Positions 1,769 through 14,313 of a stretch of 64,000 bases of DNA are shown piece by piece. Made by a program: the position numbers and the translations under genes. Within the stretch, counting starts at the first letter, position 1; each line of letters begins with the position of its first letter. The stretch comes from Escherichia coli (GTDB lineage Bacteria; Pseudomonadota; Gammaproteobacteria; Enterobacterales; Enterobacteriaceae), in the NCBI RefSeq assembly GCF_030384885.1, contig NZ_CP128613.1, one strand, 5' to 3'. The notes under the pieces were generated by a model that was not told the origin of the DNA, ran no database searches, and worked only from the letters and a program-made list of their open reading frames with translations.

Positions 1769-3287
1769 GATGTTCGCTCCTCAATGCGGCTTCCATCACC
1801 TGCTCCTGAGTCAGGTTATGATTTATCAGGTTGGCTTTTAGTTTCCCTTCATGCATCACCAGTACACGATCGCTAAGGCCGAGCACTTCAGGTAATTCGG
1901 AAGAGATGACAATAACGGCAATACCCTGCTGGACGAGTTGGTTAATTAATTTGTAGATCTCGTATTTCGCGCCAATATCGATACCCCTGGTAGGTTCATC
2001 AAGAATGAGAATGCGCGGGTTGAGTAACAGACAGCGAGCGAGGATCGCTTTTTGCTGATTGCCGCCGCTCAAACGTCCAATAGCAAGGTCGGGGGACGAC
2101 GTTTTAACTTTGAGTTGCTGGATTGATTCCAGAATACATTTTTGCTCTGCCGCGTCATCAAGCTGGCTAATACCGCCGGTAAATTTATTGAGTGCGGCGA
2201 GGGTAATATTTTTACCAACCGCCATTACCGGAACGATGCCGTCGCGCTTTCTGTCTTCGGGTACCATCGCAATCCCCTGGGCGATGGCTTGCTGACAGTT
2301 ACGAATATCTACCTGTTTGCCATCAATATAAATTTTTCCTTCCCATTGTCCGGGCCACACGCCAAACAGGCACTGAATGGTCTCGGTACGTCCGGCACCA
2401 ACGAGTCCGGCAATACCCAGTATTTCGCCACGTTTCAGGGAAAACGAGACATCATTAACTCGTTTAATATGACGATTAACCGGATGCCATGCCGTCAGAT
2501 GTTCAATACGTAATATTTCATCTCCGGTGGTATGTGGTTCATTAGGGTAAAGCGCGGTTAACTCTCGCCCGACCATCATGGTGATAATATCGTCTTCACT
2601 CATTCCGGCAGCATCACGCGTACCAATGTGCTGACCGTCGCGAATAACGCAAATCGTATCGGAAATCGCTTTGACTTCGTTGAGCTTGTGCGAAATATAA
2701 ATACAGGCGATACCGTGCTGTTGTAGATCGCGAATAATATCCAGTAAAACCGACGTTTCCTGCTCAGTTAATGAGGCTGTCGGCTCATCGAGAATTAACA
2801 AGCGCACCTGTTTATTAAGTGCCTTAGCAATTTCAACCAGTTGTTGTTGCCCTAGCCCTAAATCGCCAACGCGGGTATCTGGTGAAATAAGTAAACTGAC
2901 CTGTGCGAGCAGCTTCTGACAGCGTAGCGTCATCAGATCATAGTCCATAATACCATTGTGGGTTATTTCGTTACCCAGGAAAATATTTTCCAGTACGGTC
3001 AATTCTTTCACCAGGGCCAATTCCTGGTGAATGATAGCGATACCTTTGCGTTCGGTATCGCGGATGTGACTCGCCTGAATCTCTTCTCCCGCAAAAATAA
3101 TGTCGCCTTCGTAGGAGCCATGGGGATAAATACCACACAGCACTTTCATCAGCGTTGATTTACCAGACCCATTTTCCCCGCAGAGTGAGACGATTTCGCC
3201 GGCATTCAACCGCAAGCTAACGTTATCAATTGCCTTCACACTGCCGAAGGTTTTGGTAATGTTCTTCATTTCAAGTAGATAAGGCAT
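1746..3287 (-). CDS. xylG: Xylose ABC transporter ATP-binding protein (tandem ABC domains)
   Basis: ORF 1746..3323; start placed at internal ATG ([15 protein letters not shown]...) giving 513 aa; two Walker A GxxGxGKST motifs. Confidence 0.95.
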
Positions 3288-11088: not shown

Positions 11089-13158
11089 ATGTCTGAGAAA
11101 ACTTTTCTGGTGGAAATCGGCACTGAAGAGCTGCCACCAAAAGCACTGCGCAGCCTGGCTGAGTCCTTTGCTGCGAACTTTACTGCGGAGCTGGATAACG
11201 CTGGCCTCGCACACGGCACCGTTCAATGGTTTGCTGCTCCGCGTCGTCTGGCGCTGAAAGTAGCTAACCTGGCGGAAGCGCAACCGGATCGTGAAATCGA
11301 AAAACGTGGCCCGGCAATTGCTCAGGCGTTCGATGCTGAAGGTAAACCGAGTAAAGCGGCAGAAGGTTGGGCGCGTGGTTGCGGTATTACCGTTGACCAG
11401 GCTGAGCGTCTGACTACCGATAAAGGCGAATGGCTGCTGTATCGCGCCCACGTGAAGGGCGAAAGCACTGAAGCACTGCTGCCGAATATGGTCGCCACTT
11501 CGCTGGCGAAGCTGCCGATCCCGAAACTGATGCGTTGGGGCGCAAGCGACGTGCACTTCGTGCGTCCGGTTCACACCGTGACCCTGCTGCTGGGCGACAA
11601 AGTCATTCCGGCAACCATTCTGGGCATTCAGTCCGATCGCGTGATTCGCGGCCACCGCTTTATGGGCGAGCCGGAATTTACTATCGACAATGCCGATCAG
11701 TATCCGGAAATTCTGCGCGAGCGCGGGAAAGTTATCGCCGATTACGAAGAACGTAAGGCGAAGATTAAAGCCGATGCCGAAGAAGCCGCGCGTAAGATTG
11801 GCGGTAACGCTGACTTAAGCGAAAGCCTGTTGGAAGAAGTCGCTTCGCTGGTGGAATGGCCGGTTGTGCTGACCGCAAAATTCGAAGAGAAATTCCTCGC
11901 GGTGCCGTCTGAAGCGCTGGTTTACACCATGAAAGGTGACCAGAAATACTTCCCGGTGTATGCGAACGACGGCAAACTGCTGCCGAACTTTATCTTCGTT
12001 GCCAATATCGAATCGAAAGATCCGCAGCAAATTATCTCTGGTAACGAGAAAGTCGTTCGTCCACGTCTGGCGGATGCCGAGTTCTTCTTCAACACCGACC
12101 GTAAAAAACGTCTGGAAGATAATCTGCCGCGCCTGCAAACCGTGTTGTTCCAGCAACAGCTGGGTACACTACGCGACAAAACTGACCGCATCCAGGCGCT
12201 GGCTGGCTGGATTGCTGAACAGATTGGCGCTGACGTTAACCACGCAACCCGTGCGGGCCTGCTGTCTAAGTGTGACCTGATGACTAACATGGTCTTCGAG
12301 TTCACCGACACTCAGGGCGTTATGGGTATGCACTACGCGCGTCACGATGGTGAAGCGGAAGATGTCGCAGTGGCGCTGAACGAGCAGTATCAGCCGCGCT
12401 TTGCCGGTGATGACCTGCCGTCTAACCCGGTAGCCTGTGCGCTGGCGATAGCTGACAAGATGGATACTCTGGCGGGTATCTTCGGTATCGGCCAGCATCC
12501 GAAAGGCGACAAAGACCCGTTTGCGTTGCGTCGTGCCGCACTTGGCGTGCTGCGTATTATCGTTGAGAAGAACCTCAATCTTGACCTGCAAACCCTGACC
12601 GAAGAAGCAGTGCGTCTGTATGGCGATAAGCTGACTAATGCCAACGTGGTTGATGATGTTATCGACTTTATGCTCGGTCGCTTCCGCGCCTGGTATCAGG
12701 ACGAAGGTTACACCGTTGACACCATCCAGGCGGTACTGGCGCGTCGTCCGACTCGTCCGGCTGATTTCGATGCCCGAATGAAAGCGGTATCGCACTTCCG
12801 TACCCTGGATGCAGCTGCAGCACTGGCGGCGGCGAACAAGCGTGTATCTAACATTCTGGCGAAATCTGACGAAGTGCTGAGCGACCGCGTGAATGCCTCT
12901 ACTCTGAAAGAGCCGGAAGAAATTAAACTGGCGATGCAGGTTGTGGTGCTACGTGACAAGCTAGAGCCGTACTTTGCTGAAGGTCGTTACCAGGATGCGC
13001 TGGTCGAACTGGCTGAGCTGCGTGAACCGGTTGATGCCTTCTTCGATAAAGTGATGGTCATGGTTGATGACAAAGAATTGCGAATCAACCGTCTTACCAT
13101 GCTGGAGAAACTGCGCGAATTATTCCTGCGAGTTGCGGATATTTCGCTGTTGCAGTAA
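11089..13158 (+). CDS. glyS: Glycyl-tRNA synthetase beta subunit
   Basis: 689 aa ORF immediately downstream of glyQ. Confidence 0.97.
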
Positions 13159-13175
13159 TAACGTCGTTATTAAAA

Positions 13176-13201
13176 AGCCTGCCATCTGGCAGGCTTTTTT
13201 A
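13176..13201 (+). terminator. Rho-independent terminator of glyQS
   Basis: Hairpin agcctgcc-atct-ggcaggct followed by T6 run directly after glyS stop. Confidence 0.6.
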
Positions 13202-13479
13202 TCGCTAAATAATAGAGCAACCTTTAATAATCTTCTGATGAATAAAGATTGTCTCATATATTAATTTTATGAGATTTTTTTAGGATTATATCAAGGAGAA
13301 GAAAAGAACTTATTAAGCTAGAATAGCTGCGGGTGCTTGAGACTGTTTGTCTCAGGTATTCACCGAAAGGCAGACAGAGAAAAGCCCCACCTGACTATAA
13401 ATCAAAGTGAGGCTACCCTATGCCTGAACACCATAAGGTTAGCCTCTTACTCGTTAGAAATCAACACAGGAGGCTGGGA

Positions 13480-13632
13480 ATGCCGCAGAAATATAGATTA
13501 CTTTCTTTAATAGTGATTTGTTGCACGCTTTTATTTTTCACCTGGATGATAAGAGATTCACTGTGTGAATTGCATATTAAACAGGGGAGTTATGAGCTGG
13601 CGGCATTTTTAGCCTGCAATTTGAAAGAGTAA
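13480..13632 (+). CDS. hokA: Hok-family type I toxin (50 aa), locus intact
   Basis: MPQKYRLLSLIVICCTLLFFTWMIRDSLCELHIKQGSYELAAFLACNLKE; in-frame upstream extension present in ORF track (mok-like leader region). Confidence 0.85.
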   Translation: MPQKYRLLSLIVICCTLLFFTWMIRDSLCELHIKQGSYELAAFLACNLKE

Positions 13633-13762
13633 GAGTCTTCGGCGGGAAGTTATTCCCGCCTTTCTTACGGCGTTGCGCATTCTCATTGCACCCAAATTTA
13701 TTCTTCACAAAAATAATAATAGATTTTATTACGCGAACGATTATTTATTTCCTGAATAAACA

Positions 13763-13793
13763 AATAAAAAAATCCCCGCCATTTGGCAGGGAT
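13763..13793 (-). terminator. Rho-independent terminator downstream of cspA
   Basis: Hairpin ccctgcc-aaat-ggcgggg followed by U-run on minus-strand transcript. Confidence 0.6.
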
Positions 13794-13820
13794 CTTAGAT
13801 TCTGTGCTTTTAAGCAGAGA

Positions 13821-14033
13821 TTACAGGCTGGTTACGTTACCAGCTGCCGGGCCTTTAGCGCCGCTTTCGATGGTGAAGGACACTTTCTGACCTTCGTCCA
13901 GAGATTTGTAACCATCGTTCTGGATAGCAGAGAAGTGTACGAACACGTCTTTAGAGCCATCGTCAGGAGTGATGAAGCCGAAGCCTTTGTCAGCGTTGAA
14001 CCATTTTACGATACCAGTCATTTTACCGGACAT
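13821..14033 (-). CDS. cspA: Major cold shock protein CspA
   Basis: 70 aa [70 protein letters not shown]. Confidence 0.97.
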
Positions 14034-14192
14034 AGTGTATTACCTTTAATAATTAAGTGTGCCTTTCGGCGATATGGCGTGCTTTACAGATTTTGAAGCG
14101 TTAAAGGAATGTGCACTACGAGGGGTATCAACGATAACTCTTGAAGGGACTTGCCTTACTACACTGCTTTAATGGTCTGTACGTCAAACCGT
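14034..14192 (-). promoter_or_regulatory. cspA long 5' UTR (cold-responsive leader, by established knowledge)
   Basis: Region immediately upstream of cspA start on minus strand; extent taken from known ~159 nt leader, not resolved from sequence alone. Confidence 0.45.
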
Positions 14193-14313
14193 TGATGTGC
14201 ATTAAGCCACGCATTGGCGGGTGATGCAACAATTATTTTTCATATTTATGATTAATCGGTTGGAAAACGGTCCTGTCATCAGGACCGTAAACAGCAATAA
14301 AGTGGATAAAAGT

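Follow-up and report, generated by a model that had tools for sequence, protein, structure and literature searches.

An IS150-free chromosomal hokA/sokA locus of Escherichia coli that is probably a complete type I toxin–antitoxin system

Escherichia coli K-12, in which a 1.44-kb IS150 stands between glyS and hokA (gene order glyS, IS150, hokA, ysaE, cspA), is an atypical, damaged reference for the hokA locus. A copy without such an element occurs in the stretch of E. coli chromosome analysed here (64,000 nt, hereafter the window, to which all positions refer), and it raises the question of whether an uninterrupted hokA is also a complete one, and of what completeness would mean for activity. 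An original prediction made from the sequence had described an intact hokA at 13202-13632. Our analysis indicates that 13319-13693 is, with high probability, a complete and uninterrupted chromosomal hokA/mokA/sokA type I toxin–antitoxin (TA) locus, most likely working in the manner of hok/sok of plasmid R1. The word intact holds at the level of sequence and RNA structure.

The gene order in the window, glyS–hokA–cspA–yiaG, is that of annotated E. coli genomes. Upstream, glyS (11089-13158, + strand, stop at 13158) is followed by its intrinsic terminator (13172-13201, +; hairpin GCCTGCC/GGCAGGC and then a T-run), which bounds the TA locus from outside and gave only sub-threshold matches to Rfam STnc370. 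Downstream lies the convergent cspA (13821-14033, −), with yiaG beyond it; the boundary on this side is the cspA mRNA (13766-14193, −; Rfam RF01766, 500.9 bits), whose terminator is at 13796-13769. From the glyS stop codon to the hok ATG the distance is 321 bp, matching the roughly 320 bp first estimated, and a similar spacing of ~320 bp is found in most syntenic orthologues. The absence of an insertion sequence noted at first was likewise borne out, the glyS–cspA interval of the window containing neither a transposase ORF nor IS sequence. Over 13100-13850 the window shows 100% identity to the chromosome of E. coli 2013C-4282 (NZ_CP027579.1), in which the ORF is annotated as hokA, and 95-97% identity to nearly all other E. 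coli; the segment is colinear with uninterrupted genomes and does not show the K-12-type IS150 disruption. The allele is rare, 26 of 5425 matching genomes being ≥99% identical over the locus.

The hok-family toxin ORF predicted beyond the glyS terminator occupies 13480-13632 (+) and consists of 50 codons and a stop, with the product MPQKYRLLSLIVICCTLLFFTWMIRDSLCELHIKQGSYELAAFLACNLKE. This product matched the NCBIfam equivalog NF007290 (126.5 bits, cutoff 89, E 2.8e-37), the Hok subfamily model and Pfam HOK_GEF (PF01848; 79.3 bits, cutoff 22, E 1.5e-22), and it is annotated as WP_001135727.1 in NZ_CP027579.1. On the strength of the equivalog match and the glyS–hokA–cspA synteny, the locus is identified as hokA. 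The putative Shine-Dalgarno sequence, GGAGG (13469-13473, +), lies 6 nt before the ATG at 13480 and agrees with the consensus across genera; in several E. coli alleles it reads GGGGG. Codon 15 (13522-13524) specifies Cys (VICCTLL), at a position occupied by Phe or Tyr in other E. coli and by Phe, Leu, Val, Thr or Ser in other genera; the Cys15 protein WP_001135727.1 was found in at least one other strain. The F15C substitution in the candidate toxin may count against an R1-like reading.

The leader of hokA had been put at about 280 bp, which proved too long: the predicted mRNA leader is 149 nt (13331-13479, +), and 13202-13318 is an AT-rich spacer before the hok promoter. The putative −10 box of the hokA mRNA, TAGAAT (13319-13324, +), is present in 11 of 11 syntenic orthologues that retain the leader, lies six bases upstream of the start of the Rfam match (GGGUGCUUGAG), and aligns with TATGAT of the R1-type locus; the hok −10 box of R1 has been validated by mutation (PMC9841398). 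There is no good −35 hexamer, and a stringent sigma-70 consensus scan did not call this promoter. The sigma-70 and terminator consensus scan in fact missed the hok promoter, the Sok promoter and the Sok terminator, its thresholds being too strict for weak or bulged elements, and the promoter and terminator calls rest instead on positional homology and family-wide conservation. The Rfam covariance search proposed for the leader returned a full-length match to RF01794 (model 1-157) at 13331-13482 (+), with 123.2 bits (gathering score 59; E 1.4e-28) and ending on the hok ATG; the R1-type locus scored 87 bits and IS150-broken copies 70 and 83 bits. An AT-rich hairpin (GUCUCAUA…UAUGAGAU, then U7; 13251-13282, +; −8.9 kcal/mol, z −2.6), situated past the glyS terminator and ahead of the hok promoter, may be a second, weak terminator insulating hokA from glyS read-through.

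At its other end the locus does not stop at 13632, as first supposed, but extends to the fbi (fold-back inhibitory) element, UCUCAUUGCACCC, at 13681-13693 (+). This element pairs with tac (translational activator), GGGUGCUUGAGAC, at 13331-13343 (+), in a predicted duplex of 6 bp, an internal loop and 5 bp (−17.2 kcal/mol). Between the two lie ucb (upstream complementary box), AGCCCCAC (13383-13390, +), which matches the first helix of the Rfam consensus and is nearly invariant in orthologues, and dcb (downstream complementary box), GCCUC (13442-13446, +), which in the Rfam consensus helix around the mok start pairs with the segment GAGGC of the mok Shine-Dalgarno region; four of the five dcb bases are invariant among orthologues and the fifth nearly so. 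In the minimum free energy (MFE) fold of 13331-13700 (z −7.6), 13331-13342 paired with 13681-13693, that is tac with fbi, and ucb paired with the mok Shine-Dalgarno region. When the leader was folded by itself tac was paired to ucb, and in the MFE fold of the RNA lacking fbi tac paired with the adjacent downstream segment, forming a 5' metastable hairpin instead of tac–ucb. The 5' metastable hairpin, tac/fbi, ucb, dcb and mok coupling have all been described for R1 (PMC9841398). For the window, the alternative ucb and dcb pairings are read at the level of complementarity, and the folding pathway is a prediction.

The 3' untranslated region carries, after the hok stop codon, a GC hairpin flagged as terminator-like (GGCGGGAAG-UUAU-UCCCGCC; 13641-13660, +). 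It appeared in every fold predicted and is present in all HokA-like loci, its loop varying and its stem being compensated; the R1-type locus has its homologue after hok. By fold and scan, no convincing hokA mRNA terminator was found between fbi and cspA (13694-13800, +); the sole hairpin there is the convergent cspA terminator, which lacks a U-tail on the + strand and is far stronger on the − strand (−21.9 kcal/mol) than on the + strand (−12.4 kcal/mol). The Kluyvera and Enterobacter orthologues have a clear terminator 20-40 nt after fbi.

The two further components expected in the leader, the mok frame and the antisense Sok RNA, could both be placed. The candidate mok ATG is at 13420, with the Shine-Dalgarno sequence GAGG (13409-13412, +) 7 nt upstream; the arrangement GAGGC…CCCTATG is common to orthologues, and the R1-type locus has GAGGC…ATG. 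On the opposite strand, the putative sokA promoter (13436-13464, −) consists of a −35 element, TTGATT (13464-13459), a 17-nt spacer and a −10 element, TAACCT (13441-13436), and was too weak for the stringent sigma-70 consensus scan. The pattern TTGnnn-17-TAnnnT nevertheless occurs at the homologous site in all 32 unique loci, the R1-type plasmid copy included, against 2.4 expected from shuffles; the inner positions of the −10 element vary and T1, A2 and T6 are fixed. The predicted SokA RNA (13376-13432, −) has its 5' end at 13429-13432 and its 3' end at about 13376-13380, and its resulting length of ~52-55 nt agrees with the hokA target of 52 nt given by PMC3562002. Its 5' single-stranded tail is complementary to the region of the mok start. 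Two E. coli alleles of the segment that covers the mok start and the Sok 5' tail (13413-13433; columns 267-287 of alignment A3) differ at 5 of 21 positions, GCTACCCTATGCCTGAACACC in the window and GCCCCTCTATGCATAGACACC elsewhere; of the two, the former alone carries CUGA, a YUNR-like motif, in the loop predicted as target.

The Sok terminator consists of a 14-bp hairpin (13414-13383) and a UUUUCUCU tail, with a folding energy of −19.7 kcal/mol (z −3.1) on the − strand. The same interval folded as the + strand reached just −9.0 kcal/mol (z −1.6), since several of the pairs are U·G on the Sok strand and turn into A·C mismatches on the strand of hok. Twelve hokA-clade sequences retain the hairpin, all changes being wobble-compatible on the Sok strand; within this clade no double-sided compensatory changes were seen, and the support comes from conservation, wobble-only changes and strand asymmetry. 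A missing sok promoter or terminator had been named as the sign of a decayed locus, and both are present on the − strand.

For the window copy, events from transcription and processing through translational coupling to RNase III decay and toxicity can be sketched by analogy with the R1 paradigm. A weak promoter (−10 TAGAAT) would give rise to a stable hokA mRNA starting near 13331. In the full-length RNA tac would pair with fbi and ucb would hide the mok Shine-Dalgarno sequence, allowing neither translation nor Sok binding. Slow trimming from the 3' end would take off fbi, upon which tac would pair with ucb and a hairpin would form around the mok start; ribosomes initiating at the mok ATG would then open the hok start region, and the 50-aa membrane toxin HokA could be made. 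SokA, short and unstable, made from the promoter at 13464-13436 and ending in the hairpin at 13414-13383, would pair with the mok start region and block the mok-dependent step. Such structural completeness may not entail R1-like activity, because hokA of the IS-free strain E. coli C is reported in a preprint citing Pedersen & Gerdes 1999 (bioRxiv 10.1101/2025.08.07.668861) to show neither post-segregational killing nor activation by rifampicin.

Comparison across genera bears on the same point. Every sequence element of the locus could be placed and is conserved, with covariation between tac and fbi and strand asymmetry of the Sok hairpin, and the agreement of the window with the cross-genus consensus at all key positions makes the locus structurally complete. 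Scanning a single genome per species yielded 38 HokA-like loci, those downstream of glyS coming from Escherichia, Pseudocitrobacter, Kluyvera, Citrobacter sedlakii, Phytobacter and one further Enterobacteriaceae bacterium. The 149-nt leader is 87-91% identical to its orthologues in other genera, against 54-65% for glyS third codon positions; the hok coding sequence is 69-82% identical, and its third positions 56-74%. The leader is therefore more conserved than the toxin gene that it precedes, and conservation collapses right after fbi. Pairing between tac and fbi was found in 33 of 33 loci compared, with fbi 50-68 nt past the stop codon, and was preserved through compensatory changes (A12:U to G12:C; G9:C to A9:U; G11:C to A11:U; U7 to C7 with A to G); among them are changes from GAGAC/UCUC to GAGGC/GCCUC, GAAAC/GUUUC, UUAAGGC/GCCUUA and GCCUGAG/UUCAGGC. 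Cognate tac–fbi duplexes averaged −21.2 kcal/mol, as compared with −17.4 kcal/mol for non-cognate ones. Such patterns point to purifying selection that still acts on the RNA elements, at least when the whole lineage is considered.

The state of the locus within E. coli is divided. In K-12, the presence of IS150 between glyS and cspA was stated correctly in the original prediction, but its precise site is inside the hokA leader: the left flank ends at the equivalent of 13408 and the right flank begins at that of 13448. K-12 lacks 38-39 bp there, and with them the mok Shine-Dalgarno sequence and ATG, the Sok target loop, the Sok −10 element and the Sok 5' end. In strain CUVET21-424 the IS150, at 13403-13409, is oriented the other way round and no sequence is deleted. 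The junctions fall at 1040-1060 and 2495-2510 in the K-12 locus (L002) and at 1550-1565 and 2995-3010 in a second interrupted locus (L003), and at 13403-13448 in window coordinates. An uninterrupted hokA locus was found in 2812 of 5426 complete E. coli genomes (52%). In an evenly spaced sample of 60, 31 loci were intact, 11 were broken at 13403, 17 were broken at 13448 and one was different; all four interrupted loci that were inspected carry IS150. There are two IS150 configurations, of opposite orientation and with an almost shared left junction, which together account for ~46% of the sampled E. coli genomes and all fall within 45 Sok-encoding bp. Recurrent insertion of IS150 into this stretch could reflect a hot spot for insertion, or inactivation that was selected repeatedly; a literature search for hokA together with IS150 gave no relevant paper.

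Two further E. coli alleles show other kinds of change. In the O145 strain RM8988-C1 (L047), TGTACTG replaces the AGG of the mok Shine-Dalgarno sequence (13407-13412 equivalent; columns 262-272 of alignment A3), which is thereby destroyed. This heptanucleotide is identical to nucleotides 1-7 of the IS150 inverted repeat and stands at the usual IS150 junction, and it has the look of a scar from a lost element. The IS-free locus of uk_P46212 (L044) has TGGAAT for TAGAAT at the −10 box, ACACCC for GCACCC in fbi and a 1-nt deletion between the hok Shine-Dalgarno sequence and ATG, changes that may represent decay by point mutation in that lineage.

How far the uninterrupted locus is alive can be argued in two ways. 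The first, a possibility that falls short of an even chance, is that it is a regulatory RNA module under active maintenance, serving the host in some way other than by stabilising plasmids, and not a decaying relic. Conservation of the leader and the Sok gene far above that of neutral sites supports this reading, as does the covariation of tac with fbi across the family, and the recurrent targeting by IS150 together with one apparent excision scar suggests that an active toxin system has repeatedly been switched off. On balance unlikely is that the locus is complete in sequence but a functionally silent chromosomal relic, conserved through recent ancestry or the constraint of overlapping features rather than through TA activity. 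The behaviour of E. coli C hokA fits such silence, and the original authors are said to have suggested that chromosomal hok loci are inactive, and the K-12 loci are described as non-functional. The locus is moreover dispensable, to judge from the ~48% of complete E. coli genomes with IS150 in the leader; its promoters are weak, a dedicated terminator was not seen, and some IS-free alleles, that of uk_P46212 among them, have point changes in the −10 box and fbi. A silent relic fits less well with leaders that are 87-91% identical between genera when neutral sites are 54-65% identical, with a tac–fbi pairing kept by compensatory changes, with an antisense promoter whose spacing and key bases are kept in 32 of 32 loci, or with a window copy that has the cross-genus consensus at every key site; HokA is, besides, reported to be toxic on overexpression (bioRxiv 10.1101/2025.08.07.668861). 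An IS-free strain like the present one would be the right background for finding out what hok/sok systems do on the chromosome.

The nearest described counterpart is hokA/sokA of E. coli C, an IS-free strain in which, according to PMC3562002 (citing Pedersen & Gerdes 1999, Mol Microbiol 32:1090), the locus has been characterised and sokA regulates hokA. It lies at the same glyS–cspA site without IS150 and, like the window, has hokA, a mok frame and an antisense sokA; just allelic differences are to be expected between the two, which we compared by way of the published description, the window allele being rare and encoding HokA F15C. An intact, IS-free hokA has also been noted in the adherent-invasive strain AIEC NRG857c (PMC7232551). 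The hokA of K-12 has the same position, flanks and ORF and is 97% identical to the window downstream of 13448, but differs by IS150 and the accompanying 38-39-bp loss, damage that the window does not have; this comparison had been proposed at the outset. Papers citing Pedersen & Gerdes 1999 describe the hok loci of K-12 as inactivated by IS elements, point mutations or rearrangement. Another hok homologue on the E. coli chromosome, hokC/gef–sokC/sof, likewise has counterparts of mok and sok and is IS-disturbed in K-12 too, but its locus and toxin clade are different; there an IS186 downstream disrupts fbi, whereas the IS150 of hokA sits in the leader.

The plasmid-borne hok/sok (parB) of R1 shares with the chromosomal window copy the order of elements (−10, tac, ucb, mok Shine-Dalgarno sequence and ATG, dcb, hok Shine-Dalgarno sequence, hok, 3' hairpin, fbi), the Rfam family and an antisense promoter with a 17-nt spacer that likewise begins GCCTCTTAC when read on the hok strand. 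It differs in its toxin, Hok being 52 aa long and HokA 50 aa, with only distant similarity between them, and in that the window has no dedicated terminator after fbi; the reported lack of post-segregational killing sets hokA apart as well. As a discovery the window locus matters little, since an IS-free hokA/sokA was described in 1999 and is the majority state in E. coli; the locus is well described, and the copy here is an ordinary one. Its value is for annotation: hokA is currently marked as a CDS alone, and the coordinates given above add the positions of mokA, SokA, tac, ucb, dcb and fbi.

The relation of mok to hok also differs between the window and R1. The mokA frame of the window (13420-13632, +; 70 codons) is in frame with hokA and open through hok, and the mok ATG precedes the hok ATG by 60 nt, in frame, in the window, other E. 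coli and the Pseudocitrobacter, Kluyvera and Citrobacter (C. sedlakii) orthologues. It might accordingly be supposed that the real product is a 70-aa, N-terminally extended HokA begun at 13420, and that there is no separate regulatory mok: the upstream ATG has its own Shine-Dalgarno sequence, GAGG, no stop codon intervenes, and the in-frame layout is kept in intact E. coli and in the three other genera. We regard this as improbable. In Phytobacter the distance is 59 nt and the upstream ATG is out of frame, and in R1 the mok and hok starts, at 116 and 174, are 58 nt apart and in different frames (PMC9841398), so that across the family, as far as the aligned loci indicate, the position of the mok start is conserved and its frame is not. 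In R1, only translation of mok as far as the hok start matters. Further, hok has a strong Shine-Dalgarno sequence of its own (GGAGG, at 6-nt spacing), its ATG is conserved in all loci, and the NCBIfam HokA model is 50 aa long. A regulatory mok that opens the start of a 50-aa HokA is the preferred reading.

That the + strand match at 13331-13482 to RF01794, a family named 'sok antitoxin', denotes an antitoxin RNA encoded on the hok strand upstream of hok is almost certainly wrong, given that the match starts at the conserved mRNA 5' end and stops exactly on the hok ATG, that the promoter motif and the far stronger hairpin with its U-tail are on the − strand, and that the canonical R1-type locus is matched on its hok-coding strand likewise. 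In the test on that plasmid locus the match (L042 232-403, +) also ended on the hok ATG, and the naive reading of a + strand sok was rejected on this result. Judged by this behaviour, RF01794 models the hok mRNA leader, the complement of Sok, and not the antisense RNA itself; automated annotation based on it would place sok on the wrong strand.

Two smaller features adjoin the 3' end of the locus. A ysaE-like ORF of 23 codons (13609-13680, −) runs antisense to the hokA 3' end and the 3' hairpin. Its product, MRNAVRKAGITSRRRLLLFQIAG, is identical at 20 of 23 residues to K-12 'protein YsaE' and is hypothetical in NZ_CP027579.1; it had no match in Pfam or NCBIfam, and in the literature the name ysaE turned up solely in unrelated senses. 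Some E. coli carry, between fbi and cspA, an insert of ~390 bp with a 123-aa ORF annotated 'yidD' (990-1361 in strain 47538, L051; ~1700-2240 in L004). The window is without this insert, which begins just past fbi and so marks the 3' edge of the conserved hokA module.
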